A program made the position numbers and the translations under genes. A stretch of DNA of 64,000 bases, taken from Candidatus Magasanikiibacteriota bacterium (GTDB lineage Bacteria; Patescibacteriota; Patescibacteriia; Magasanikbacterales; GWA2-37-8). Under the pieces are notes generated by a model. The model was not told where the DNA came from. It ran no database searches and was given only the letters and a program-made list of their open reading frames with translations. The DNA lies in contig CAWJAS010000002.1 of assembly GCA_963840935.1 (NCBI GenBank), positions 71,333-135,332 of the forward strand, written 5' to 3'. How positions within the stretch are numbered: the stretch's first letter is position 1; each line of letters opens with the position of its first letter. Shown here piece after piece: positions 2,158 to 60,389 of the stretch.

Positions 2158-3660
2158 TTATTCAGATAATTTTTGAAGTAATGCTTTCCCGATATCCGAC
2201 AAGGAATCGGAATAATCTGACGCAAGCATTTTAAACATATCTTTATTTACTCCCGCTATTGTACTGTCGCCAAAAATTATGTCAAAACTCAATTTTAACG
2301 CGGTTGAAAATGTTACGTACATTTTAACTTTTGAAGCGTCGGTTTCTTTCAGCATTATGCCACTTCTGATTGATGACAAAGGAATAAACGCTTCATTTTT
2401 TATAATAAATGGATATGTCTTGATTAAAAAGAAAAGACCACCAGCGCCCCAAATCTCTTTTCCATCTTTACCAATAGCTTTATCTTCCCCGACCATATTC
2501 GTACTCATATTTGGAGTAAAATTCATTACCATATAGCCCCCAATAACTTTTGAAGCGTCACCGCATTCTTTTATGGTATTATCCAAATCATCGTCTTCAA
2601 CTCGCAATATATAACCTTGTTTTTTATTTACTTCATCGGTTACAACAGCGCTCGCTTCAACTTCGAGCGATACACTTAACGGCCTTCCTTCAATTTCTTT
2701 TGCGCAAACAAGATATAATTCAATATCGTCATCAATATCTTCCCACTCATCGCCAATTACACTGGAAAGATCAACCCCTCCGTTTAAATTTTTAACTTCA
2801 CCGGCAATTGATGCCTTTCTGCACATATACGGATTATTCGGGTCAACCGGATCGACATTTGTGCACAATCCTCCGTCCTTACCGCATCTATCCCCCCAAC
2901 AAAAAGCTTCTGTCGAAGCTCCGCCAATAAAGAATCTTTGCCCGCACCAAAAATTTTTATCAGCCGGATTATCATGCGGATATTTTAAATTATATGCACT
3001 ATCATTAGTCGCTTTAATTTCATCTTTTTGTTTTTCATGACTCGCGCCAAAAGCAAAATCTGTTTTGGGGTCAAGCTCACGGCACCATTTTGAAGGCAAA
3101 ATTTGCTGACGAATCATATAAACTTGCGGGAGACGCAAATTAACCGTTGCCGGATTAATACTTTGCAAAATGTTGTATGACATGAAAGCGATAAACAAAC
3201 CAATTATCGCGCCGGTTATGCGTTTTTGCGATTGTTTGATTACCTCGCCATTACCCCCGGAAGAAGCCCACTGCGCGCCGGCAATAATAATCATGACAAC
3301 CGCCAAAATACCGATCATTAACAAAGAATAATTATACACGGTCTTAATATAATCGCCGACATTTTTAAATTCTTTACTTCCGCCAAAAGAAACCTGGGCG
3401 ACAGTCGCGTTGGCCGGCAAGCACATGCCCCATCCTTTGGCGTCGCATGGATATTGATTTTCCAGCCAGCCTTCAGACGCTTTGGCGTTGCTTTCACCCA
3501 CAAAATCGGCGCGCGCCTCTTCGCACGCCTTTTGTTCCCAGCAAATCGGATTATATTTTGGCGATAAATCCTCACCCAAAACACTCAAAGGAAAAAACAA
3601 ACCTATTGCAAACGCGAATATAAACAAAACTGCACCGCTTTTTTTATATCTATTTTCCAT
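2158..3660 (-). CDS. Cys-rich secreted/membrane protein of unknown function. A central hydrophobic hairpin (two TM helices with a short G/S/Q-rich connector) is reminiscent of VirB2/TrbC-type pilins
   Basis: 500-aa ORF with an N-terminal signal/TM and many Cys. The segment LLMIGILAVVMIIIAGAQWASSGGNGEVIKQSQKRITGAIIGLFIAFMSY forms the hydrophobic hairpin. No recognisable catalytic motif. Confidence 0.4.
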   Translation of the reverse strand: MENRYKKSGAVLFIFAFAIGLFFPLSVLGEDLSPKYNPICWEQKACEEARADFVGESNAKASEGWLENQYPCDAKGWGMCLPANATVAQVSFGGSKEFKNVGDYIKTVYNYSLLMIGILAVVMIIIAGAQWASSGGNGEVIKQSQKRITGAIIGLFIAFMSYNILQSINPATVNLRLPQVYMIRQQILPSKWCRELDPKTDFAFGASHEKQKDEIKATNDSAYNLKYPHDNPADKNFWCGQRFFIGGASTEAFCWGDRCGKDGGLCTNVDPVDPNNPYMCRKASIAGEVKNLNGGVDLSSVIGDEWEDIDDDIELYLVCAKEIEGRPLSVSLEVEASAVVTDEVNKKQGYILRVEDDDLDNTIKECGDASKVIGGYMVMNFTPNMSTNMVGEDKAIGKDGKEIWGAGGLFFLIKTYPFIIKNEAFIPLSSIRSGIMLKETDASKVKMYVTFSTALKLSFDIIFGDSTIAGVNKDMFKMLASDYSDSLSDIGKALLQKLSE

Positions 3661-4492
3661 ATTGAGTAATTATTGTTTCCCAATTTTCAAATGGCACGGA
3701 ACCGGCCAAAATACGGCCGTTAATAAAATAAGTCGGCGTGCCTTTGCTTATGCCATAAAAATTGCCGTCGCTAAAATCTTTTCGCGCCTCAAGACCACCG
3801 CGGTCACTCGACACGCATTCCCGCATTTTTTGTTTATCAATCCCATATTCGTCAGATAAATTATCAACTGTTTCCATCGGAAAATCAGCCGGCAAAGTAT
3901 CTTGGTTGGCAAAAAAATATGAAGCAAAAGCCCAATACGCCCCCTGTTCATGGGCGCACTCGGCAATAGCCGACAGCTTTGTGGTGCCCGGATAAGTGAA
4001 TTCAACCGGAAAATTTTTGAAGATTATTTTTACTTTTTGCCCGTACTTGGCGACCACTTGTTTTAATACGTCATCCTGCGCTTTGCAAAAAGGGCATTTA
4101 AAATCAAAAAAAGCGACAATAATCAACGGCGCTTCCGGATTACCCAAAAACGGATCATCGCCATTTTCCAAAGCCGCTCTAATAGCCAAAATCTCTGCGG
4201 TTTCTTGGTAGGCTATTTGTGGATAGAATTTGGTTTGCAGTTCGGCTCCTCGGCCGGATTTTACTAAACGCCAATAATTAAATATTAAAAAACCCAAAGC
4301 CAGAGCAACAACCAGCGCCAAATAAAAAACAATAATAAGAGTCGTCCCCCACCATGTTTTATACCAATGTTTTTTTTCTTGTATCGGCTCAATCATACAT
4401 AACATTATTTTATCATATAACATCTTTAAAGCCAATTGTGAATTGACAACCAAGCCGGCTGATGATATACTGTTTTTACTGATTTTTAACAA
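3650..4492 (-). CDS. Membrane-anchored DsbA-like thiol:disulfide oxidoreductase (thioredoxin fold)
   Basis: 280-aa ORF with an N-terminal TM helix, then FFDFKCPFCKAQ. This is a CPFC (CxxC) thioredoxin-type active site in DsbA-like context. Confidence 0.75.
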   Translation of the reverse strand: MLKISKNSISSAGLVVNSQLALKMLYDKIMLCMIEPIQEKKHWYKTWWGTTLIIVFYLALVVALALGFLIFNYWRLVKSGRGAELQTKFYPQIAYQETAEILAIRAALENGDDPFLGNPEAPLIIVAFFDFKCPFCKAQDDVLKQVVAKYGQKVKIIFKNFPVEFTYPGTTKLSAIAECAHEQGAYWAFASYFFANQDTLPADFPMETVDNLSDEYGIDKQKMRECVSSDRGGLEARKDFSDGNFYGISKGTPTYFINGRILAGSVPFENWETIITQYGK

Positions 4493-4506
4493 ATATCAAA
4501 CATCAT

Positions 4507-4725
4507 ATGAACAGTTCTCTGTCTAATATTATCCAGATAATACTTTCAATTCTGCTGATTGCGGTAATTTTGCTTCAGCAAAAAAGCTCCGGCGTGGGCG
4601 GTGTATTCGGGGGCTCTTCAAATGTTTACAGCACCAAGCGCGGAGTGGATAAAATTCTATTTTACGCGACCATCGTTATTTCTATTCTCTTCTTCGGATT
4701 TTCGCTCTCTCGGCTTTTCTTCTAA
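4507..4725 (+). CDS. secG: Preprotein translocase subunit SecG
   Basis: 72-aa two-TM protein with the characteristic LLQQKSSGVGGVFGGSS...KRGVDKIL pattern of SecG. Confidence 0.6.
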   Translation: MNSSLSNIIQIILSILLIAVILLQQKSSGVGGVFGGSSNVYSTKRGVDKILFYATIVISILFFGFSLSRLFF

Positions 4726-4773
4726 TAAACGGGCCCGCGAAACAATTGATTTTTTCGCCTTAATCAAGCGAAC

Positions 4774-6711
4774 ATGGATTGGAAAAACATCATCAGAAAA
4801 AAAACAAAAAGCGAACCGCGTCCGGTGGTTCGTGATTTTGATTCCAAACTGGTAAAAAAACTGCGTCATAAATTTTTTCCCAACTGGCGCCAATTTTCAT
4901 ATATCGGCAAATTTCTTTCCGGCATTGAAAAAATTATTATTATCACCGCCTCTTTGGTAATTGTGGCATCGTTCGTTGGTTGGGCTATTGTTTCGGTGCC
5001 AAAACATTTTTCCTTCACCCCAAAATCCGGCGGAGAATATACCGAAGCTTTAATCGGCCAACCAAAAATGATAAACCCAATTTTTGACTCGGCCAATGAT
5101 GTTGACGCTGATATCACCCCGTTAATTTACGCCAAATTATTCAGAATCGGCGACAATCAAAAAATGATTCCTGAACTGGCGGTGTCATATTCCGTGAGCG
5201 AAGACAATAAAACATACACAATCAAACTCCGTGAAGATGCCGTTTGGACCGACGGAGAAAAAATCGATGCCGATGATGTGGTGTTTACTTTTGACACAAT
5301 CCAAAATCCGGAAATCAGTAGCCCGCTTTATCCGGCTTTTAACGGAGTAAAAATAGAAAAATTAAGCCAATTTGAGGTCAGCTTTATTCTCAAAGAATCA
5401 TATGCGCCTTTTGTGTCGAGTCTTGCTGTTGGCATTATTCCCGAACATGTTTTTGGGTTGATCGCGCCAACCAATTTGCGCATTGCCAAAGAAAACCTGC
5501 AACCAAAAGTTGTTTCCGGTGCCTTTAAATTTTCCAAGATGACCAAAAATGAAAGTGGTATTGAAACATACACACTTGAAAGAAACGAAAGATATTTCGG
5601 TTCATTCCCGCACATCAAAAAAATCACTTTCAAATTTTATCAAGATTTTGCACCCGCGGCCGATGCTTTAAAAACTCGCAATTTTATGGGATTGGCTTTT
5701 GTCCCAAGCAATTTAGTCAAATCTTATGGCGGTAAAAATTACTATTCCTACCAATTGAGATTGCCCCAATACTCCGCTTTATTTTTCAATCAAAGTTTTT
5801 CATTATATAAAGATTACGATATCAGAGTGGCTTTGGCCAAAGCGATTGACCGTCCAATTGTGATGCAAACCGCCTTGGGCGAACAAGGTGAAATCATCAA
5901 CGGACCAATTCTTTCGGGATTTATCGGTTATCATTCGGACATTGCAAAGATTGAATACAACGCCGATGAAGCGGCCGAGTTATTGGATAAAACATGGCCG
6001 AGAATTAACCCTGAAGATTATTTTGCCTTGCGCCGAGATGCCATTGTTAAAGAGCGTGAAGAAGAAATAACGAGTTTGCCGGATTATGAAACCAATTCCA
6101 CCACTTTGCGCGAAGAATTAACCGCTTCAGTTGAAGAAACCGTACGCGCCACCATGCGACCGGACCAAACCTATTACCGGAAAAATGAAAAGGGGCAAAT
6201 CTTGACTGTCACCGTCACCACGGCGAACACGCCCGAGTATCAAGCGGCCGTTGAATCAATCGCTTTGATGTGGCGGGCAATCGGTGTGCAAACCAATGTA
6301 AAAATTGTGGACGGAAGACAAATCAGCCGTGAGGTTCTTCGAGGCAGGCAATTTGAAATTTTGCTTTATGGAGAAATTCTTGGCAATGACCCCGACCCAT
6401 ATCCGTTTTGGCATTCTTCGCAAACAGAATCCCCGGGTTTGAATTTGGCGGGATTTACCGACCGCAATGTTGATAAAATTTTGGAAGATGCGAGAACCGC
6501 CACTTCATCGGCAATCCGCGACGAGCTATATAAAAAATTTCAAGATACCATTGTTAAAGATCTGCCGGCGATTTTCTTATACGCGCCGACTTATGAATAT
6601 TTGATAGACAAAGAAGTTAAGGGAGTGGAAATTAACAATATTTATTCCCCCGCGGGGAGGTTCAATAATATCGCTAACTGGTTTATAAAAACCAAATGGA
6701 GCTGGAAATAA
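4774..6711 (+). CDS. ABC transporter substrate-binding protein, family 5 (peptide/nickel type), membrane-anchored
   Basis: 645 aa with an N-terminal TM anchor. Overall OppA/DppA-like architecture with typical family-5 SBP blocks (KLFRIGDNQKMIPELAVSY...KLREDAVWTDGEKIDADDVVFTFD). Confidence 0.65.
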   Translation: MDWKNIIRKKTKSEPRPVVRDFDSKLVKKLRHKFFPNWRQFSYIGKFLSGIEKIIIITASLVIVASFVGWAIVSVPKHFSFTPKSGGEYTEALIGQPKMINPIFDSANDVDADITPLIYAKLFRIGDNQKMIPELAVSYSVSEDNKTYTIKLREDAVWTDGEKIDADDVVFTFDTIQNPEISSPLYPAFNGVKIEKLSQFEVSFILKESYAPFVSSLAVGIIPEHVFGLIAPTNLRIAKENLQPKVVSGAFKFSKMTKNESGIETYTLERNERYFGSFPHIKKITFKFYQDFAPAADALKTRNFMGLAFVPSNLVKSYGGKNYYSYQLRLPQYSALFFNQSFSLYKDYDIRVALAKAIDRPIVMQTALGEQGEIINGPILSGFIGYHSDIAKIEYNADEAAELLDKTWPRINPEDYFALRRDAIVKEREEEITSLPDYETNSTTLREELTASVEETVRATMRPDQTYYRKNEKGQILTVTVTTANTPEYQAAVESIALMWRAIGVQTNVKIVDGRQISREVLRGRQFEILLYGEILGNDPDPYPFWHSSQTESPGLNLAGFTDRNVDKILEDARTATSSAIRDELYKKFQDTIVKDLPAIFLYAPTYEYLIDKEVKGVEINNIYSPAGRFNNIANWFIKTKWSWK

Positions 6712-13117: not shown

Positions 13118-14344
13118 ATGCGAATTGGAATCGATATCAGACCTTTAATGACCGCCCAAAGAACCGGCGTTGGCGAATACACATTTGAACTTCTTGACTC
13201 AATTTTTAAAATTGACCGCGATAATCAATATTTTTTATATTATAACTCCGGCAAAGATACGACAAAAAATATTCCCGATTGGAAATATGAAAACGTGAAA
13301 ATTATTTCTTCACGACTGCCAAACAAAATATTTAACGCATCATTAAAAATTTTTGGACGACCGAAGTTGGACCGCCTTGTCGCTGAATCACTGGATATTT
13401 GGTTCTCGCCCAATCTGAATTTTACTTCCCTGTCGCCGGGTATAAAAAGCATTCTAACCGTTCATGATTTGTCTTTTGAATTTTTTCCTGAATTTTCCAC
13501 GGCCAAACAATTTTTTTGGCACAAAGCTATCGCGCCAAAAAAGCAATGCGAGCGAGCTGATTTGATTTTAACTCCATCGGAAAATACCAAAAAAGATATA
13601 GTTGATTATTACAAAATCGACCCGCAAAAAATTAAAGTGATTTACCCGGGGATAAAAAGTACACCAACCAACAATGTCATTCTGAGCGAAGCGAAGAATC
13701 TTTTTGATTATTCGGTGAAAGATCCTTCGGCCTTCGGCCTCAGGATGACAGGTGAAACGGAGATAAAACATAAATACAACCTGCCTGAAAATTATATTCT
13801 ATTCCTTGGCGCGATTGAACCGCGAAAAAACATAATCGGCCTGATTGAAGCGTTTGAAAGTCATTGCGAGGAGGCCGAAGGCCGACCTCAGGCTGATTCA
13901 AACCACCAACATTCTTTGGTCATCGCCGGCGCTCCGGGATGGAAAAATAAAAAAATTTTTGAACGAATTAAAAAATCAAAGTTCAGCGAACGTATAAAAA
14001 TTTTAGGATTTGTGCCTGATGAAGATAAAGCTGGACTTTATGCCCTGGCAAAATTATTTGTTTATCCAAGTTTTTACGAGGGGTTTGGCTTTCCGGTGCT
14101 TGAGGCAATGAAGGCGGGCGTGCCGGTTATTACTTCAAATTGTTCTTCATTGCCAGAAATTGCCGGACCGGCCGTTTATCTCATCGACCCAAACCGACCA
14201 AATCAAATTGCCCTGGCCATGAACGAGCTGATTAATAACGAAAAATTACGCGAATGGCATATTAAAAAAGGCCACGAACAAACACAAAAATTCAATTGGC
14301 AAAATTCGGCAAGAGAATGGCTAAAAATAATAGAAACTCTATGA
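13118..14344 (+). CDS. Glycosyltransferase, family 4. Contains two short GC-rich in-frame insertions
   Basis: 408 aa with GT4 blocks (LFLGAIEPRKN, YEGFGFPVLEAMKAGVPVITS). The extra peptides VILSEAKNLFDYSVKDPSAFGLRMT and HCEEAEGRPQADSNHQ are encoded by GC-rich inverted-repeat DNA. Confidence 0.8.
   Translation: MRIGIDIRPLMTAQRTGVGEYTFELLDSIFKIDRDNQYFLYYNSGKDTTKNIPDWKYENVKIISSRLPNKIFNASLKIFGRPKLDRLVAESLDIWFSPNLNFTSLSPGIKSILTVHDLSFEFFPEFSTAKQFFWHKAIAPKKQCERADLILTPSENTKKDIVDYYKIDPQKIKVIYPGIKSTPTNNVILSEAKNLFDYSVKDPSAFGLRMTGETEIKHKYNLPENYILFLGAIEPRKNIIGLIEAFESHCEEAEGRPQADSNHQHSLVIAGAPGWKNKKIFERIKKSKFSERIKILGFVPDEDKAGLYALAKLFVYPSFYEGFGFPVLEAMKAGVPVITSNCSSLPEIAGPAVYLIDPNRPNQIALAMNELINNEKLREWHIKKGHEQTQKFNWQNSAREWLKIIETL
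13676..13749. repeat. 74-bp GC-rich segment with terminal inverted repeats, inside the GT4 ORF
   Basis: The arms gtcattctgag and ctcaggatgac flank an internal palindrome ggccttcggcc. GC content is far above the surrounding gene. It translates in-frame as VILSEAKNLFDYSVKDPSAFGLRMT. Confidence 0.5.
13860..13897. repeat. Second, shorter GC-rich palindromic segment in the same GT4 gene
   Basis: gtcattgcgaggaggccgaaggccgacctcaggctgat. It shares the gtcatt... and ...cctcagg termini with the 13676 element and has a ggccgaaggcc palindrome. Confidence 0.4.
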
Positions 14345-15558
14345 AAATAGGCATTGACGCCCGCATGCTCGGGTCAAAACAAGGCGGAATCGGGCGGTAT
14401 GTACACGAACTTATCAGACATTTCAAAATCGCCTCGTGTCATCCTGATTCGCCATTTGGCGAAGAAGGATCTTTTAGCACAATGGGTCAAGATTCTTCGG
14501 TCGTTTCACTCTCTCAGAATGACAAAAAAAACAATCTTCAATTTGTTATTTTTTTGCGTAAAGATAATTGGGATTTGATTGATGAATCGCTGAATATAAA
14601 AAAAGTTCTAGCCGATATTCCCTGGTATGGCTGGCGCGAACAATTATGCTTGCCAAAAATTATTAAAAAAGAAAAAGTTGACCTGATGCATTTTCCGCAT
14701 TGGAATATTCCGTTTTCTTATTGCAAACCATTTGTTGTTACTATTCACGATTTGCTTTTACTCCACTACCCGACTCGCGCTTCAAGCACACTCGGGCCAC
14801 TCACCTATTTTTTTAAAAACTTGGCTTACAAAATAATTTTGCGCCACGCTATAAAAAAATCTCGTCATATCATCACTATAAGCGAGTTTACCAAAAATGA
14901 TATTTTTAAAAATTTTAACATTGACGCAAAAAAAATTACCGTGACGCATTTGGCGCCTCTCCCTCCCCCTCTTAATCTCCCCCTCGGGCAGGGGGAAAAA
15001 ACGCCCGCCAATCTCATTCATTACAAAATTACCAAACCCTATGTTCTTTATGTTGGCGTGGCTTATCCGCACAAAAATTTGGAGGGTCTGATTGAAGCTT
15101 GGAAAATATTTTGCGCTGAACACGGAAATGATTACCAATTAGTGTTGGCCGGAAGAAAAAATTATTTTTATGAAAAGATTCTGAAACAAGTTCAGGATGA
15201 CAATATAATTTTTACCGATTATGTTCCCGATGAAGATTTGCCCATGCTGTATAAAAACGCTTCGCTTTATGTTTTTCCGTCTTTTTATGAAGGATTTGGT
15301 TTGCCTCCGCTTGAAGCAATGCAATATGGCGTGCCGGTTGTTTCTTCAAACTCAACCTGCCTACCAGAAATTCTAAAGGACTCGGCATTGTATTTTAACC
15401 CTTCAAACAAAAATGAAATGAAAGGCGCGATTTGGCGTGGATTGACTGACCAAAACTTAAGGCAAGAACTGAACCAAAAAAGTGTTCAACTTATCCACAA
15501 TTACAGTTGGAAAACCACGGCAAAAACAACTTTGGAAACCTATCTGAATGTGATATAA
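14341..15558 (+). CDS. Glycosyltransferase, family 4. Contains a GC-rich hairpin-encoded insertion
   Basis: GT4 blocks (VLYVGVAYPHKNLEGLIEAW, YEGFGLPPLEAMQYGVPVVSS). The start is taken at MKIGIDAR (14341), a 4-bp overlap with the upstream stop, rather than the longer 14296 ORF. The extra peptide PLPPPLNLPLGQGEK is encoded by a C/T-rich tract plus the hairpin ccccc-tcgggca-ggggg (14979..14995). Confidence 0.75.
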   Translation: MKIGIDARMLGSKQGGIGRYVHELIRHFKIASCHPDSPFGEEGSFSTMGQDSSVVSLSQNDKKNNLQFVIFLRKDNWDLIDESLNIKKVLADIPWYGWREQLCLPKIIKKEKVDLMHFPHWNIPFSYCKPFVVTIHDLLLLHYPTRASSTLGPLTYFFKNLAYKIILRHAIKKSRHIITISEFTKNDIFKNFNIDAKKITVTHLAPLPPPLNLPLGQGEKTPANLIHYKITKPYVLYVGVAYPHKNLEGLIEAWKIFCAEHGNDYQLVLAGRKNYFYEKILKQVQDDNIIFTDYVPDEDLPMLYKNASLYVFPSFYEGFGLPPLEAMQYGVPVVSSNSTCLPEILKDSALYFNPSNKNEMKGAIWRGLTDQNLRQELNQKSVQLIHNYSWKTTAKTTLETYLNVI

Positions 15559-26756: not shown

Positions 26757-27096
26757 TTATTCAATTGGTGGTTCAGCTGGCGGTTCGGCAACCGGTTCTT
26801 CAGCCGGCGTTGGTTCCTCGACAACCGGCTCTTCCTCGACGACCGGTTCTTCGACAACAGGTTCCTCGACAACCGGCTCCTCTGTTGGCGCGGGTTCCTC
26901 GGATATTGGATCTTCAACCACTGGCTCTTCTGTAATCGGCGACTCTTCTGTCACAGGTTCTTCGACAATCGGTTCGTCCTCTGTCGCCGGTTCCTCTATC
27001 GGTGTCGGTTCTTCGACAACAGGTTCCTCGACAACCGGCTCTTCCGAAGAGGGCTCTTCAATCACCGGTTCTTCCGGAACCGGTTCAGGAACATAG
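26757..27096 (-). repeat. Tandem coding repeat (Pro/Glu/Val-rich EEPVV units) at the 3' end of the giant gene
   Basis: Periodic ggttcttc / gacaaccggctc nucleotide repeats encode ...EEPVVEEPVVEEPTPIEEP.... They generate the Gly/Ser-rich shadow ORF 26656..27096 on the plus strand. Confidence 0.7.
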
Positions 27097-30000
27097 TCAA
27101 TTTGAAGTCCGATCAGATTAACCGTACCGTCAGAAACAAACACTTTTGAATCCGTGCTTGCGCCAATAGCCTGCCAATTAAATAGAACATCAACGGACTG
27201 AATTTCACTTAACATAATCTTAAAGCCCGATGTGCTAACTTCCGATAATTTCCACTTTCCATCAAAATCAATCGGAGTAATGTTAATTATCGGGGCAATT
27301 TCGTACGGTTCGGCAAATATCACGGTTGTGGAAGCATGCCCGGCCAAAATCATACCTTGTCCAACCGTATCTTCACCAAAAGTAACATGTTTTTTGGCCG
27401 TCAAAGTACCATTGAAAATAGCAGAATCATAAATAACAAGAATGTTCGCCGTCAAACTTTCAAAAACTTCATCGATTAATTGCAGGCCAGCGCTTGAAGA
27501 AGCCAACTCACTTAATCGCAAATCAAAATCAGTCATCATGTTAGACAGGTCGACAATTGATTGGTCGGCCAAAATATCATTATTTTCCAAAATCGATACT
27601 CGACCACTCAATTCGTCAAGCATGGCTTGAGTTTCTGATAACGAAACATCCAAAACATCCACCGAATCAGTAATTAATTCAAAATCATCAGTAATATTTG
27701 TGTCAAATTCTTCTAAAATGGCGACTCGTTCTTCAATTGTTAATTCTTCTTCAACCTCTTCCTCTTCTTCAAATACTAAGGCAGGCGGACCTAATGGTTC
27801 CGAGGAATCATCTTGCCAAACACGCCAATAATCAATATCCAAATAATGCAAGGCAGTTGAATAGTTCATCAACAAGGCGGTCAATCCGACTGTCGGAACG
27901 TTGGTAGTTGATTCTCCGCAATATGTCCAATCAATGCCATTTGAAGTGTCGTTGTCAACATAAAATTTCACCGAACCGGTTCCGTCGCCATTGGACGATA
28001 CAACTTCAATTTTTGTCACTGCAAACACCGTATTATTAACAGTTTGACCGGTACATTCAACATTGGTTGAAGCGCCGGCTCTTCTGGTAACACCTCGCCA
28101 ATCGCCTGTGGCGGTGTTGTTGGTAAAATAAATACCATTTGTCGGGTCGGTGGTTTGCGCTTGCGCTCTGTCGCCAATTCCGACCCAAAAAAGAGCGGTG
28201 GCGGAATCAGCCGAAGGACGAATTTTACTCAAAATTACCGGCAAATTATTGACGTTAAATACGTTATGCGCGGTTGCTAAAGCAGAAGCATAATAGGCTA
28301 AACAACTACTTCCAGCACCCGCTTGTTGCCGGCCAATGCCATTAACTTCATTATTAATATTAGACCATGTGCAAACTGTATTTTCATCGGTTGTGAACTG
28401 TTGAAAGTCACCCCAAGCCCAATTAGTGTCAGCCCCAATATTCGCTCGATTTCTCATAAATTCTTCGCCAAAATAGGCGTTGCGTTGAATCAAGGCGCCG
28501 GTTTCCAAACTCATACCAAAATTTTGTGATAAATTTTTCGCTTCCAATAATGTTTGGCCGGTTGAACTGCTTATAATGCTCGCCATTTCTTCTTTATCAG
28601 AATAAATGGTCAATACTGAATTCGGTGTTGAAGTGCCTATGCCAATATTTCCGCTATTCAACATTGTTAATAAATTATTCCCGCCTCCATTTATTGTATC
28701 GTAAAAAGCTAAACCGGCATCGACAGGAGAATTAACCGCGGTTACATCAAGTGTGTATGCCCCGGTTTCTCCCGCATAATAACTGGTGACTACGATATTA
28801 TAGGTTGAACTGGCGTCATAAACAAAAGCTAAATATGAATTGGTACCCGTACCACCGTCGTCATCAAAATAAGTAACTGTCCCTGTGTCAGATACTACCT
28901 GCAAATACGCGTCAAAAGCCACAGATGTTAATGATACGGTCATGGACGAACCATTTGGAATACCGGGGAATATTGTGGCGATGTTGTATGCATCCATATA
29001 ACGACCGGTTCTGTTCGGATTGTCCGGGTCGGTAATATCCAAAGAACCGTTAATAGAAGTTGATGTTGGCCCAAATGAAGCGGTTGATTTAATCGCGGCC
29101 AAAGAATTCTGATTGTTTATATTATATAAAGTAGCCCATACTCTATTCCAATTACGTTCAAAATTACCCAAATCATAAGCTAAGCTTGAAGCCGGCACAA
29201 CATTTTTCATTGTTGAAGTCCCATTTACAGACAAGGTTGTGGAAGGAGTTTTTGTGCCAATTCCAACAAAACCATCACTTGTGATTCTCATCCTTTCGTT
29301 CGATGCCTGCCAGCCATCGGTCATAAAGACGATGGGGGCTCCGCTTGCTTCATTAATAATATAGGCTCCTCCAGGCGCGACCGCGTCAAACACGGCGCTG
29401 TCCGGCGGGATGCCGGCAAAACCAGGGGTAGTGGATCCATAATAACCGAGTTGCAAAACATTGGTATCACCACCGGCCTTAAGATTAAACAGGGCTACTT
29501 TTGAAGACGATGCTGTTTTTACTTCAGCCGAAACATTATTATCTTCGTCATAAACTCGTAATTTAAAATAATTAGGGTCAGTCGTTCCTATGCCGACATT
29601 ACCAATATTACTAATATACATTCCAGTGGCTGAAGAGCTGGTCATAATATTCAAAAGCGGATAGGTGGATGTGCCGGAAATAGTTAACATGGCGTTTGGA
29701 TTTTCATTGTTAATGCCTACTGTTCCGGTAGCCCCCAAAGTCAAAATATTTGTGAATAGTCCGCTATCATTTACATAATAGAAAATAAACTTATCGTCTT
29801 GTGTCGCATCACGTTTGGATAATTGCCAATATCTATTATTATTCGTGACAAAATTTAAATTAGTAGCGCCGGCAATTGTTTTTTGGAGAATTGTCATTGC
29901 CGGGCCGGAAGTCGCCGTGACTACATGCAATGGCGCGGAAGGAGTTGTCGTACCCATTCCAACCCATCCGCGACTATCAATCGCCATTCTTTCCAAGGCT

Positions 30001-33000
30001 GTCGTTGAACCGTTCGGTGTAGTGCTAAACACAATTTTACCCGGCATGCTATTCAAGGCGGGAGTCCCATCAGCTTGCCCAATAATACCGCCGGCCTTTT
30101 GCCAAGCCGAACCATCATAGCCATAAAAATCCAAACCACCAAGATTATTATTATTGGCGGTTAATGCCGGTACGGCGGTTGTCCCGCCGGAAGAGCCCAA
30201 ATTAAACATCGGGTAGCCGTTGCCGGCCACTTTAAATGAAAAATCAGAAAACGCACCTATATCATCGCTTAAAATAATTCTTTCATAGCCGGTGATGCCG
30301 GTGGCGCTCGGGTCGCCAAGAACCATTCCTCCGCCAAGATATGAAATTGCGGTGGTTGATACCGCGGTAAAATAGTCGGCCTGAAAATTTTCATCAATAG
30401 TTAAACTTCCTCCAACTTCCAAGTCGCCACTCATATACGAATCTCCAACCACTTCAAAAATCACGTCTGATGAGGTGACGCTTCCGCCAACAACAACTGC
30501 ATAAGGAGGTATTAAAGACGGATATAAAACACTTGCAGTTGTGGTAGCCCAACTTGAATCTCCTCCACCTCCGGACGGCCAAGTATTTCTGGCTACTCCC
30601 CCCAAAGTAATATAACCTGTTGCCACTAAATCAGTTGTCGTTACAGAATTAGCAACAACCAAATAATTTGCCGAGGCCAAAGTCATGGTTGTAGTCGCCA
30701 AGCTGGCAACGCCATCAACATAAAGCGACGAACTGGCAAAAATAATATCTTTAAACCAAACTGGCAAAGTGGAAGAAGTGGTCAAAACATCAAGACCATT
30801 GTGTGATACCAATTGCCAATTGGCTGTTGCGCCTCCGGCTGAAGCTAGTAAATTACCATTCCAATAAAGATCACCGGCGCTATTATATAAAGAATAAGTG
30901 GATGTGGCAGTGGCGGTGTCACCCAAATATAAACCACCATCAACGTGAAGCAAATTTAAAGGTTCGTACAAAGCCGTGCCGATACCAACATGCCCGGTAC
31001 CGGCCTGAATTGTAAACACATCATCGCCCTCAGCACCGATGGAATCATCCCATAATCGCAGGTCCAAACTACTGGTCGGCATATACCAACTCCAACCGTT
31101 GTCATAACTGCCGGAATTGACTCTGCGTATATAATTACCGGCCTCTCCGTTGCCATTTGCCACTATTGTGATGTAATTTCGAGAGCTGGTCGGGCTTGAG
31201 GACAAATCATCGCCCCAAATTTCCAAACGATCATATGGGGTTGATGTGCCAATCCCAAAACTGCCGTCATAAGTTGAAAATGCGGTATTTTGAAGATTGC
31301 CATGTCCGTTTTCAATAAAATAATCGAGTGTACCTGAGGCACCGGCAGTATCGTAACGAATCGGAAAAACATCAGCCGTTGTATTAAAGTGATTGGAAAC
31401 CAAAACTATATTGTCATTGTCGTCAGTGGCCGCGCCTAAAAATACATTACTATCAGCAAACCCCGCTCCGGCCCATGAAAATGATGTATGAGTAATTCGC
31501 GCACCTGAACTCGCACCGGAATTTGTGATATATGCCGGGAACACATTTGCAGAACCGGCGGCTATGGTGATGCCTGTCACAAAACCGGCGTCCAAATATG
31601 TGTTGGCGCTCGCACTATTATGATAAACAATTTTTATACTATTGGCAGGCGCGAAAGAATAAATCGGGAATGTAATAATCGGGTCTTTAATGGTAATCAC
31701 GCTTCCTGAATTGGTGTTATCCACATAAACCAAAGATAAATCATCAGTCCCGTCATAAGTGGTAATAACATTATCCGCACCAAAAATGTTTGCTCGCACT
31801 AAATTTGAGCCACTAATATAAAAGGCCGTATTTACACGAACACCGGCCGCGTTATTTGAACGAGTTAATTTAAATTCGCTCTGGCCCGAACTTTCAAAAG
31901 TTCCGTTATCAACATAAACAACCGCTTGAACCGCCGCGTCATTTGTAAAAGTTGCTTCGGCAATAACATTTTTTAACGTTGCCTGGCCGGAGCCAGTCAT
32001 TTCGACAGCGTAATCATTAGTATTTTTTACATCAATATCAGCTAAAGCACTTCCCGTCGCCATATCAAAAGTCACCTTGCCGTTGATTATGGTATTGCAT
32101 CCCGAACCTTGTACTTTCATGTAATCCGCCATTACAACATTTTCATTGTATGTGCCGGGTGCTATCACCACCAAATAGGGATCTTCCATGGTCGCCGATG
32201 AAGAAGCGGCGGCAATACCAGCGGCAATGGTTTTTTTGGCTTTTGCCGGAGAGGTGCCATCAAAATTATCTTTTCCACTGGTGTCAGACACATATATTGT
32301 ATTGCCCTCAGTCAAAGCGACCAGAGTTATAATTTCGGACCAAACATTTTGATTGTTGTTCAAATGTTTTACTTCAACAAGCCCATTATTAACTCTAAAA
32401 CCAAATCCGGAAGAAGCGGTTGTTGTGCCAAAATTAATGTATGGGTCAATTGCCGACAACATAATATTGCCGTAAACATCAAGTTGCGACAGCGGATTTG
32501 AGGTGTTAATGCCGACAAATCCCTCGTTTGCTCCGCTACCCTGAATAAACAATGAGCTCGAACCATATAACAAATTATTCTGAGTCATCATTCTTATGTC
32601 ACCTCCCAATGATGCCATAAACAAATCGTTCCCACCGCTAGCGGCAATACCAAAAACACTGTCGGCATTGGGGAACCCGGCAAAATTACTGCCGGTCAAA
32701 ACAATCGTTCCGCCATAGCCCGCATCATTAAAAAACTGCATTTCTGTGGATGCTCCATTCCCGGCCGATAAATTTGCCAAACGAATTCCTGAATCTGTGT
32801 TTGAAGAAAATTCAATGTCAAGAATGTGATATGAAAGCGGGTCGGCCATGCCCGGAGTTGATGTGCCAATACCAATTTTTCCTTCATTTGTAATAACCAT
32901 TCTTTCGGTGCCGGCAGACATAAATCTTATCCAATCCTCATCAGGAGATGATTCGACGGAAACAACAGTATCACCATCCGAATCTTGAATATAGGTACTG

Positions 33001-36000
33001 GTACTTCCGCCCATCACCGGCATACCATTCCAATATAATTGACCCGAATTATTATAAAGCGCGTAAGCGGTATTTGCCGGAGTACCACTAACAATATTGA
33101 TACCACCGACAACGCTCAAAGCGTTCAATGGCGTGGTGGTGCCAATACCGATAAACCCACTTGAAGCGACAAAAAGAGAGCTTGTCGGCGACCAGGCAGA
33201 TCCATCCCAATAAATAGTTTGACCAGCAAGTGTTCCATAATTTACCGGGGTCAAAATTGTTCCGTTAACCCTGTAATTACCGGTAAGATTAACATCGCCT
33301 TGAACGGTTAACTTGTGCGATGGGGTTGAGGTGCCAATACCAATACGGTCATTTGATCCGTCTACAAATAATAAATTTGAATCACCGGCGCCTTGAACAA
33401 TAAAATTATAATTTCCGCTTGAAGTATTGAACACGGCCCCGCCTTTTACAAGCATTTGGGTATTGAATCCGTCAAGCATCATGACTTTGTTATCAGTGAC
33501 ATTACTTTTTCCGTCTCCGGTATCATTATTTTGGAACGCAAAAATTAGATTGGCGTCAGCTCCGCCTCTGGCAATCGCCCATCCGCGTAAACTTGATGTT
33601 GTGCCGAAATCATTTGTATCACTGTATAAAAACAATGCCGCCCCCGCATCACGACTTCCGCTCATTGCCGATAACTTTGCCCAGCTACTAGTCGCTTGCA
33701 CGCCAAGCATAGTTTGCTCTCCAGCATTATCGTTAATAAACAATAAACCGCTGTTATCATAGTAATCTGACCGATAAGCCAATTTCGGCAATAAAGCTTG
33801 CCCGGTGTCAACTTTAATAATGTCTTGGTCGATATTATCATGCCGGCCGAACAGCACCGTTCCTTCTTCTTCAGCTAAAGCGTAAAAATATACATTATCA
33901 GGATTGTTTATATTAATATCAGCACTAGAAAAAGCTCCATCACTTGAAGAGATGTTAATTGTTGAATCATCATTTTGATCGATATTTAAAGTTAAGGCTT
34001 TTTGAAGATAACTGGCTGTAACTTTTGTAATAGAATTATTATTGCTAACAATATTGTTATCCAACCCCCACATATTCGAATAGCGAATTTCCGCATATGA
34101 ATCATCGCCGGCAATATATAAACCCGTACCACTATCATTATATGAACCAAACTCACTGCCTACCATATAAAATTCCGAGGCTCCCGTAGTACTGTCAACA
34201 TAGGCGTAATAGGTATCTGATTCTTCCATATAAGACGCTTCGATTTGCAGGATGCCACCATTATCAATATATACCCCTGCATTACCAATATCATATAAAT
34301 CCATGTGAAAAGCATCCACGAGGTTTGTAACAGATAAATCAATACCTCGATTAACGCTTAAAATTGATACTCGTTCCAACTCCATCCAATTAACGCCTTC
34401 GCTAGTAATATTTATTGCATCACAACCGGCGGTATTTTTGAATCCTGTGGTATCCGAACCATCGATTGAAAAATTAGACATTGAAAATTTAACAGTGTCA
34501 GTAGTGAAATTAATGTCAAAAACCGGATCTCCGGCAGTCACCAATGAATCACCTGGAACAATCACAACTCCGCTTTGCGAAATACCATGAATACCTTTGA
34601 TTTTTGGATTGGTAATTTCCAAAGTAGAAGTCACTTCGTATTCGCCCGGATAAATATGTATAACAACATCGTATGTTGAAGTATTCGCATAATCAATCGC
34701 GTCCATCAGATTGTCAAAATCCCCGCCTTCTTTGGCAACATTGATGGTGTGATTAATTTTGCCATAAACATCCGCCCAATCACCACCCAAATGTTTAAAT
34801 TGAATCCGACCGTTATTATCTCTAAAACCATAACCTACCGTGCCGGTCGCCGTGTCAAAATTTAAATATCTATCCTCGCCCGACAAAATAATATCGCCAT
34901 AAACATCCAATTTCGCCAATGGTGAAGAAGTACCGATACCTACAAAACCATTAGATTCAATTCTCATTCTCTCAACCGAGGTAGTCGGGCCCTCGTCGCC
35001 ACCGACATAAAAAATTATATTATTAGTATCTCCAACAGCGGCAAGAGCAATGCCCCTCGCCATGTCAAAAGTAGCTAAGGTTAAATAACCAGCCATGTTG
35101 GTATAGCCATCCTGACTAAAATTACTTGAAGGCATCATTAAAGCGCCACTAACATCATCCACTTGCAAAGTTATCATCACCGCTGAACTGGCGCTATTTA
35201 CCGTATTTTCAAATCGAGCTTCCGCCCAATCATCTATACTATGAACAAAATGTAAGGGGGCCAGCGGGGTGGAAGTGCCAATGCCTAAATAACCATTGGT
35301 ATTATCCCAATACAACGAACTTGTTCCTGTAATCGATGAAGCGCTGTCCCAAAAAGAAAGCTGACCGATCGAACCGGAACCGGTCACTCCTCCGATTCCC
35401 GCGGTTAAAGATAACCAACTTGAGCCGATATAACCAATAAAATCAGAACCATCAAAAGCAATGGTTCCGGCGGTCGATGTGGGAGTGGTTGTGGCACCAA
35501 TATTTATTCCACCGGCAACAGTTAGCATTTCAAAAGTTGAACTGGTGCCAATTGCCACTCGTCCGTCATTTTCGATTCGCATTCTTTCTGTGTCCATGGT
35601 CGGCGGACCATAGCCACCGGCATAAAAAATAATATTTCCGCTAGAACCGGCAAGCAAGGCAAGTCCATTGCCACTGGCGCCTGGAAATCCTGAAACTAAA
35701 GCGGTGTATCCGGCTAAATTTGTTAAACCATAATCGTTAAAATTTTCACCCGCGACGCCAATGCCACCACCATAATTGCCAACTTTAAACTGCATCAATT
35801 CAGTCGAACTCGCTCCGTTATTTATATTTTCAAAAGTTACAAGCGGACCATTATAATTTTCATTATGAACCACATGTAAATTATACCCCGGTGTTGTTGT
35901 GCCAATACCTACACGTCCGCCAAAATAATTGGTTGAACTGGCGCCATCCGAATAAATATTAAAATTGGAAGTAGTGGCAAAATTTTGTTCTTCAATGTAT

Positions 36001-60123: not shown

Positions 60124-60195
60124 GCCCCTATAGTTTAATGGATAGAATATCAGGCTTCGAACCTGAAGATGGGAGTTCGATTCTCTCTGGGGGCA
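60124..60195 (+). tRNA. tRNA-Arg (anticodon TCG)
   Basis: GCCCCTATAGTTTAATGGATAGAATATCAGGCTTCGAACCTGAAGATGGGAGTTCGATTCTCTCTGGGGGCA. Anticodon loop CTTCGAA, T-loop TTCGATT. A terminator aaaaccatattaatggttttt follows. Confidence 0.85.
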
Positions 60196-60227
60196 CAAAA
60201 ACCATATTAATGGTTTTTATGACCACA

Positions 60228-60389
60228 AGCGACTAAACAGTTTTAGTCGCGTGAGAAATCGAACGCCGGAGCGATGTTTGGCGAGCCTGCGGGCGAGACA
60301 AACCGCAATTCGCCAACTGGCGAAGGTGGCTAGACAAAATTTTCGGAAGAAAATTTTAGTCAGAAGCCAATTCTCTCTGGGGGCACAAA
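60228..60389 (+). other. Conserved tRNA-associated element, copy 2. It ends with a 19-nt copy (60371..60389) of the tRNA-Arg(TCG) 3' end
   Basis: The evidence is as for copy 1. The terminal ttctctctgggggcacaaa duplicates 60181..60199. The element abuts the RBS (aaggag) of the gene at 60418. Confidence 0.5.

Follow-up and report, generated by a model that had tools for sequence, protein, structure and literature searches.

Head-to-head hairpin dimers lie in frame within two glycosyltransferase genes of a Patescibacteria genome and probably belong with the Ssn-related motifs

What are the short GC-rich inverted repeats that lie in frame within two consecutive glycosyltransferase (GT) genes of a Candidatus Magasanikiibacteriota bacterium, and how did they come to be there? 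The two genes, GT1 and GT2, are part of a stretch of 64,000 nucleotides (positions 71,333 to 135,332 of contig CAWJAS010000002.1, assembly GCA_963840935.1), the whole of which was analysed and is hereafter called the window. Their host belongs to the Patescibacteria, in the candidate phyla radiation (CPR). The original prediction, made from the letters of the window, had named both genes as GT4 glycosyltransferases of a polysaccharide locus. Pfam agrees for both, and the locus (a sugar transferase, three GTs, and a DUF4012 gene) keeps its order in the metagenomic contigs L001 and L002. The ATG of GT2 overlaps the stop codon of GT1. The GT1 protein is long when compared with its typical orthologs (~369–376 residues), and one ortholog of GT2 (P0121, 405 residues) is 100% identical to it. 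Judging by the sequences compared below, we consider it quite likely that two segments, named E1 (in GT1) and E2 (in GT2), are head-to-head dimers of Ssn-related motifs (SRM) inserted in loops, presumably selfish passengers spread by a nuclease.

E1 is present as the original prediction had described it. Its termini, GTCATTCTGAG and CTCAGGATGAC, are complementary at 10 of 11 positions, it is flanked by T and A, like the wider family described below, and its two arms have a common design with different inner hairpins. It folds at -35.4 kcal/mol (z = -4.6), which none of 200 shuffles equalled, and it encodes the 25-residue peptide VILSEAKNLFDYSVKDPSAFGLRMT at GT1 residues ~187–211. In GT2, the inventory of the original prediction overlooked the clearest element of the gene: E2 runs from GTCATCCTGA to TCAGAATGAC, folds with z = -3.05, and is read in frame as (C)HPDSPFGEEGSFSTMGQDSSVVSLSQND, about 29 residues. 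The terminus GTCATYCTGA has five exact matches in the 64 kb, four of which pair as E1 and E2, the fifth standing alone at 15192–15201. When the whole window was scanned for GTCAT...ATGAC hairpins and for single arms, only E1 and E2 exceeded the shuffle background. A scan for GC islands was not diagnostic, because the window has a GC content of ~40%. The features are listed in the table.

Table. Elements, relics and host genes in the window. Positions count from the first letter of the window; spaces in the arm sequences separate the parts of the arm.
Feature	Position	Strand	Basis
GT1, GT4-family glycosyltransferase, 408 aa	13118..14344	+	Pfam Glycos_transf_1 (2.8e-37), Glyco_transf_4
E1, intact 74-bp head-to-head dimer of GTC-tagged hairpin arms	13676..13749		fold, termini, orthologs
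E1 left arm, GTC ATTCT GA GC-GAA-GC GA AGAAT C	13676..13700	+	identical to dispersed 25-mer
E1 right arm, GTC ATCCT GA GGCC-GAA-GGCC GA AGGAT C	13721..13749	-	arm scan
E3, decayed relic of GTCATTGCGAG-type element, read as HCEEAEGRPQAD	13860..13897		ortholog DNA comparison
GT2, GT4-family glycosyltransferase, 405 aa	14341..15558	+	Pfam match
E2, intact 86-bp head-to-head dimer	14438..14523		termini, fold, arm scan, orthologs
E2 left arm, GTC ATCCT GA TTCGCC-ATTT-GGCGAA GA AGGAT C	14438..14471	+	arm scan
E2 right arm, GTC ATTCT GA GAGAGTGAAACGACC GA AGAAT C; inner hairpin degenerate	14491..14523	-	arm scan
CT-rich tract (PLPPPLNLPLGQGEK), lineage-specific insert outside the hairpin-repeat family	14958..14995	+	fold, orthologs
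Lone terminus GTTCAGGATGAC (VQDD), possible relic at a third insertion hot spot	15190..15201		exact 10-mer match

Are there other copies of these arms, as the original prediction had asked? A scan with GTCATYCTGAGCGAAGCGAAGRATC, using one genome per species, found exact copies of the 25-nt E1 left arm in other species, in at least 120 stretches of genome, so E1 is not a chance match. The matches listed include Acidobacteriota, Nitrospirota, Chloroflexota, Bacteroidota, Firmicutes, Cyanobacteria, Verrucomicrobiota, Planctomycetota, Gemmatimonadota, and Patescibacteria, among other phyla. The 25-mer is also found in 58 viral contigs of IMG/VR, and it matches none of the PLSDB plasmids. The E1 arm is thus a repeat class dispersed across phyla. 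A full-text literature search for the arm sequence returned no relevant paper, and Rfam gave nothing at the gathering threshold, only miRNA-like hairpin noise below it. The common layout of the family is an arm, a variable stem-loop, and the reverse complement of the arm, with a recognisable partner arm in 69 of 130 copies. The cross-phylum copies are mostly intergenic (~102 of 130 lack a spanning open frame), occur in either orientation, and have lengths evenly spread modulo 3 (23/23/23). Among the 39 complete copies, the element is preceded by T in 32 and followed by A in 33, and 37 show no target-site duplication.

All four arms of E1 and E2 fit the design of the family: GTC, ATYCT, GA, an inner hairpin, GA, AGRAT, and C. 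The Y and R positions were left free in the query, and they covary within the arm in 137 of 137 cases, the only combinations being T...A (77) and C...G (60). The two arms of one element pick their type independently (17, 12, 8 and 8). The covariation within arms and the independence between them indicate that each arm is a hairpin of its own. The tandem G.A pairs of the arm stand in a Y-GA-R context, and the inner hairpin of E1 is GC-GAA-GC; GCGAAGC is a very stable DNA mini-hairpin. Some dimers are hybrids of an E1-type arm and a canonical NTS arm, the NTS being the Neisseria repeat introduced below (loci L031 and L066).

Two peculiarities of the cross-phylum copies are worth recording in their own right. 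In many, part of the sequence 5' of the arm is duplicated in tandem as X-GTCATCCTGAGC-X-GTCATCCTGAGCGAAG (L020, L026, L029, L033, L036, L040, L044, L058, and L065). The duplicated unit consists of the terminus and 7–10 nt of flank, with a mirror pattern past the right end in L004. These duplications may have been left by the mechanism of spread or by slippage during replication. In six Acidobacteriota-like loci (L005, L008, L039, L045, L082, and L095) the dimer is nested in a second palindrome, CAGGCTGCGGAAAAA...TTTTTCCGCAGCCTG. One of them, L039, is labelled Saccharimonadales and is nearly identical to the Acidobacteriota copies; the label may be a binning error.

Which gene accompanies the arms? 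Characterised arms of this sort are the NTS of Neisseria (CGTCATTCCCGCGMAVGCGGGAATCYRG), a subset of dRS3 whose wider class is the SRM (Chenal et al. 2025, PMC11893778). SsnA, a small single-domain GIY-YIG protein (cd10448), binds the NTS hairpin only as single-stranded DNA (ssDNA), neither as double-stranded DNA nor as RNA, and cuts a few bases upstream of it. Cleavage requires the upstream GTC, binding depends most critically on the C that follows the palindrome, and SRMs are found near 71% of ssnA homologs (PMC11893778). In our data, a first test, using tblastn with a divergent protein of 81 residues from L002, found only 1 locus, and a Pfam scan of 134 neighbouring open reading frames (ORFs) of at least 100 residues returned housekeeping genes only, with no transposase enriched. 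Both tests were biased against genes of ~95 residues. The viral contig L254 has a GIY-YIG ORF of 114 residues between arms. Among 178 arm-bearing loci, all four GIY-YIG genes are 16–100 nt from an arm, in the layout arm-gene-arm, and in L009 the stop codon of the gene lies inside the arm, giving the tail DSSLRSE-stop. Such an arm-encoded tail ends at least ~22 of the 120 nearest homologs of the L254 protein, a count inflated because the query included the tail. We then checked at the DNA level untailed homologs that are independent of each other (L264 from Parcubacteria, L268 from Patescibacteria, L270/L273, and L274): four out of four are within GTCAT...ATGAC arm arrays, of several families and with covarying stems. 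Finally, the GIY-YIG genes located 4–41 nt from canonical NTS in viral contigs are 45–53% identical to the nucleases of E1-type arms (E = 1e-22 to 1e-28). The linked nucleases match PF01541 only in Pfam, the UPF0213 structure 1zg2 in PDB at E = 2e-4, and no model of NCBIfam. In summary, the arm family, dispersed across many phyla, sits directly beside Ssn-like GIY-YIG genes.

Two GIY-YIG loci deserve separate mention. In a Parcubacteria lineage (L264–L267, ~500–2300), an Ssn-like GIY-YIG gene and its arms are inserted in a diversity-generating retroelement, between the bAvd and the reverse-transcriptase genes. The gene that encodes the 81-residue protein in L002, an insert-free contig syntenic with the window, is at 322–567 on the minus strand and is without hairpin arms.

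We then asked whether E1 and E2 were inserted in the genes, using alignments of 30 GT1 orthologs and 27 GT2 orthologs together with DNA alignments of the syntenic loci. Most of the aligned orthologs lack the segments. E1 is missing from L002 and from most GT1 orthologs, and E2 is lacking in GT2 orthologs of 88–90% identity (P0122–P0124, and L001). The same few positions hold other GC-rich peptides, namely CHCE...RND, HPELVSGS...KQVQHD, HPREGGDP...VGND, FPRRRES...FHGDD, and VIPTxEESL...LGMT. The empty sites in most orthologs and the different repeat families at the same sites bear out the in-frame, lineage-specific insertions read by the original prediction, rather than peptides conserved among orthologs. 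The history of the E1 site can be followed in two relatives. In P0004, 67% identical to GT1, the element of E1 occupies the same site and is read in the same frame, which suggests inheritance or allelic exchange, and E1 may therefore have been inherited over some depth. P0002, 85% identical to GT1, has a different repeat family five codons upstream of the E1 site. The whole linker, element included, differs between GT1 genes that are 85% identical, and the gene that is 67% identical has E1.

A survey of 240 homologs (120 relatives of each gene) for inserts of at least 10 residues found one or more in 38 of the 120 GT1 relatives and in 23 of the 120 GT2 relatives. They cluster at core columns ~90, ~180–193, and ~230 in GT1, and ~31, ~185, and ~250 in GT2. 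In frame, GTCAT is read as VI/VM, [CSGR]H or S[FLS], and ATGAC as MT or [NDHY]D, its third frame being a stop. Both terminal signatures are found in 38% of the 58 inserts of at least 15 residues, compared with 2% of control segments, and the GTCAT...ATGAC termini are borne out at the DNA level in the inserts of the orthologs. When metagenomes were scanned with the GT1 alignment, the matches were for the most part distant relatives that carry few inserts. The loci examined showed no insert that breaks the frame; the apparent ones were adjacent paralogous GT genes merged by tblastn and were discarded. These results show that E1 and E2 are lineage-specific insertions in the loop-coding parts of two GT4 genes, and that a small number of structural hot spots see copies turn over and decay through deletions that keep the frame.

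The positions of the inserts were then located in AlphaFold2 models built from the ortholog alignments, whose mean pLDDT (predicted local distance difference test) is 83 for both GT1 and GT2. In GT1, the pLDDT falls below 50 only at residues 183–210, which correspond to E1 and to the linker between the two Rossmann-like domains. In GT2 this happens only at model residues 32–62 (E2, after the first helix) and 214–220 (the CT-rich tract). E3 is at the end of a helix, with moderate model confidence. E1 and E2 are thus modelled as disordered loops of 25–30 residues with the frame kept, and the tolerance of inserts in surface loops suggested by the original prediction is upheld by the models: they fall in the only unstructured, low-confidence stretches of otherwise confident GT-B models.

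The remaining segments of the two genes are decayed or doubtful. The 38-bp segment of GT1 reported by the original prediction (E3) exists, and only part of its description holds, the inverted repeat being weak (~7 of 12) and the fold not significant (z = -1.85). The same-site element in the closest ortholog (P0002, in L203) is 39 nt longer, which corresponds to a 13-codon in-frame deletion in E3, and the site is empty in L001, L002, and L204; E3 is a relic of a longer element. The CT-rich tract, which had been presented as carrying a repeat-element hairpin, folds no better than its shuffles (z = +0.78; 152 of 200 fold equally well or better) and lacks the GTCAT/ATGAC termini of the family. It is common to close GT2 orthologs only, is missing in the more distant P0125, and has no further DNA copy in the fetched loci or viral contigs. 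Its peptide LPPPLNLPLGQGE is found at another site in the GT2 orthologs P0136 and P0142, which may point to another kind of small mobile insert that keeps the frame. At the site of the lone terminus, relatives have the peptides ACLSGRQVQDD, VRGNDN, FHGDD, or WIPAFAGMT...PRND. The terminus may be a relic. It may also be native sequence, because the insert-free L002 reads GTTAATGATATC at this position, and it could be a chance match, since simple arithmetic gives ~0.24 exact matches to the 10-mer per window.

How could the elements have reached these genes? By analogy with the NTS, each arm would be a strand-specific DNA hairpin that an Ssn nuclease binds and cuts as ssDNA. Copies would have been dispersed in trans by an Ssn-type nuclease whose gene lies in another part of the genome or lay in an ancestor; how SRMs spread is not established in the literature either. 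Only in-frame, stop-free insertions in permissive loops would have survived selection, and the elements would in essence be selfish passengers that the enzymes do not require. Several observations weigh against the assignment of E1 and E2 to nuclease-spread SRM dimers. The published degenerate SRM pattern (HGTCWYN(0-2)YYVSBRHN(0-5)WNVSBRGN(0-2)RNCYNB) matches no arm of E1, E2, or E3, nor the canonical cross-phylum arm; it has 0 matches in the window, and the NTS fits it. GTC is preceded by T in E1, in E2, and in 32 of the 39 family copies, which makes the tag TGTC and not the CGTC of a second known class of repeats. There are only two intact copies in 64 kb, both in GT genes, compared with hundreds in SRM-rich genomes. 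The window has no Ssn-like GIY-YIG gene, and the membership of the linked nucleases in the Ssn family (cd10448) is judged through a homology proxy. Finally, that the inserts are translated is deduced only from their intact reading frames.

Would the host gain from these copies? They might be kept as internal Ssn targets, or as recombination boundaries for the exchange of GT alleles or domains, an explanation that we find unlikely. Every intact copy and relic of the 64 kb lies in 2.4 kb of two GT genes, the linker that joins the two Rossmann domains is the main hot spot, and this linker with its element differs between 85%-identical genes, yet E1 is present in the 67%-identical one. NTS and SsnA modulate the integration of incoming ssDNA (PMC11893778), and clusters of NTS have been proposed to shape exchange around Neisseria surface-protein genes. 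The clustering in 2.4 kb of surface-polysaccharide genes and the apparent swapping of linkers therefore leave room for a recombination-boundary role, and recombination sites within a polysaccharide locus are the one role suggested by the original prediction that fits, by analogy, the published biology of the class (PMC11893778); its phase-variable hotspots found no support. However, the hot spots coincide with permissive loops, as expected from purifying selection alone, relics decay, most orthologs have no inserts, the window lacks an Ssn gene, and NTS are rarely intragenic in Neisseria (2%). It would be bolder still, and we give it little credence, to see in the CPR dimers of GT linkers and loops built-in boundaries for ssDNA cleavage and recombination that enable swaps of domains or linkers between strains. 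If true, this would be a gene-internal version of the NTS-gene-NTS arrangement of Neisseria, and the in-frame palindromes of Rickettsia (Rickettsia palindromic elements, RPEs) would belong to the same nuclease-driven system.

The other explanations are less plausible than a host benefit. Selection of the segments as mRNA hairpins, for stability, pausing, or attenuation within or between the overlapping GT genes, could account for the good folds of E1 and E2 as sense-strand RNA (z = -4.6 and -3.05) and for their loops of stable tetraloop type (e.g., TTCG), and most repetitive extragenic palindromes (REPs) are transcribed (Di Nocera et al. 2013, PMC3733652). We judge it improbable given the covariation, which supports separate hairpins for the two arms, their G.A pairs lying on opposite strands, a design symmetric with respect to the DNA strands. 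Moreover, the element is elsewhere mostly intergenic and in either orientation, close orthologs do without it, Rfam has no matching family, and the known partner enzyme acts on ssDNA and does not bind RNA (PMC11893778). It is more improbable still that the segments are REPINs mobilised by a RAYT tyrosine transposase, or classical MITEs (miniature transposable elements with inverted repeats) mobilised by a DDE transposase. They do have terminal inverted repeats and the REPIN architecture of two inverted palindromes with a spacer, but they have no GTAG tag, 37 of 39 copies lack a target-site duplication, and the gene between the arms encodes a GIY-YIG nuclease. No transposase is enriched in the 134 neighbouring ORFs, and none, Y1 transposases included, is among their most frequent families or among the 25 of 58 window families listed. 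The presence of E1 at the same site and frame in P0004 is what one would expect of an ancestral GT loop that is palindromic only in appearance. Yet most orthologs lack the segments, unrelated repeat families occupy the same sites, and intergenic copies in other phyla have the 25-nt arm without any change, which makes this last explanation barely credible.

The locus and the rest of the window have other features. In L001, the closest syntenic contig, a gene with a faint Pfam match to Transposase_20 (IS110-type) lies at 4062–5453, between the GT genes that overlap in the window; it is another sign that the locus is a target of mobile DNA. In L002, a gene of the bAvd / 23S-IVS-type four-helix bundle (3338–3703, plus strand) stands between the sugar-transferase gene and the first GT gene. 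The window has one giant ORF of ~3,660 residues on the minus strand (26757–37742). An island with a GC content of 0.60–0.68, against a background of ~0.40, spans ~55600–57050; its ORFs have no Pfam match, it adjoins an inverted repeat (57001–57026 / 57082–57107), and it may be foreign DNA or DNA rich in non-coding RNA. A GC-rich repeat of ~62 nt is present in two copies (59073–59135 and 60249–60310), 55–65 nt 3' of tRNA-Lys (58935–59008) and of tRNA-Arg (60124–60196). Read on the minus strand it ends in ...GGCGTTCGAATCCAGACGCGACCA and resembles a tRNA 3' half, T-arm and CCA included; ARAGORN does not call it, nor does Rfam.

If E1 and E2 are SRM dimers, they tie together systems that the cited papers treat separately: the in-frame palindromes of Rickettsia (reportedly the work of Ogata et al. 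2000), the CGTC-tagged REP dimers, and the Ssn ssDNA nucleases. They would also extend these repeat classes to the CPR and to many phyla listed for neither class. The censuses of SRM and Ssn may be underestimates, because the published pattern misses a very widespread arm family. The elements account for recurrent odd peptides (VILSEAKNL..., ...LRMT, ...QND, and ...DSSLRSE-stop) in proteins of CPR and other metagenome-assembled genomes, and the inserts offer a natural map of the insertion-tolerant loops of GT-B glycosyltransferases.

How close are E1 and E2 to the systems already described? Like SRM and NTS, they are made of hairpins of 20–50 nt, all four arms having an outer stem of 5 bp and inner pairing, with GTC directly 5' of the palindrome and C directly 3' of it (all end in ...AGRAT-C). 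Arms of the family lie on either side of small single-domain GIY-YIG genes, which are homologs of the ones next to canonical NTS; the arms also form hybrid dimers with canonical NTS arms and are spread across phyla. They differ in that the 5-bp stem, tandem G.A mismatches, and variable inner hairpin replace the continuous 8-bp stem of the NTS. E1 and E2 are also intragenic and in frame in a CPR host, whereas only 2% of NTS are intragenic in N. meningitidis; CPR hosts and in-frame copies get no mention in the description of the class (PMC11893778).

The CGTC-tagged REPs, which include the dRS3 of Neisseria and the R. conorii elements RPE-6 and RPE-4, are mostly head-to-head dimers; many copies are intragenic and encode 20–30 residues, and no transposase was known for the class (Di Nocera et al. 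2013, PMC3733652). E1 and E2 are also head-to-head dimers with the tagged ends outward, intragenic and in frame (25 and ~29 residues), in genes that remain intact and fold confidently. Several insertions per gene are possible in both cases, without a known dedicated transposase. Besides the base before GTC, they differ in the tail after the stem, which does not follow the CCA consensus, in the host phylum, since Patescibacteria is outside the five phyla listed for CGTC-REPs, and in the host genes, which encode glycosyltransferases and not mainly DNA replication and repair.

The REPIN / REP-RAYT system, said to go back to Bertels and Rainey 2011, shares with our elements two inverted, short, imperfect palindromes with a spacer, able to form a long hairpin. 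Neither is autonomous, and for both, movement presumably relies on recognition of an ssDNA hairpin, without target-site duplication. The tag is GTCAT instead of GTAG, the partner gene encodes a GIY-YIG nuclease instead of a Y1/HUH transposase, and the sequence of E1-type arms is conserved across phyla whereas REPINs are species-specific. Classical MITEs are set apart by the target-site duplication that 37 of the 39 complete copies lack. The original prediction's "REP or MITE kind" therefore stands for its first half, as repeats of REP type close to the SRM and to the CGTC-type dimers, and falls for the second, because elements without target-site duplication are not MITEs derived from a transposase. 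Given these membership tests, we place E1 and E2 in a known class, to which they add a sequence family and a host lineage. The novelty lies in the CPR host, in arms with G.A mismatches, a family that falls outside the published SRM pattern, and in the turnover at hot spots within glycosyltransferases.

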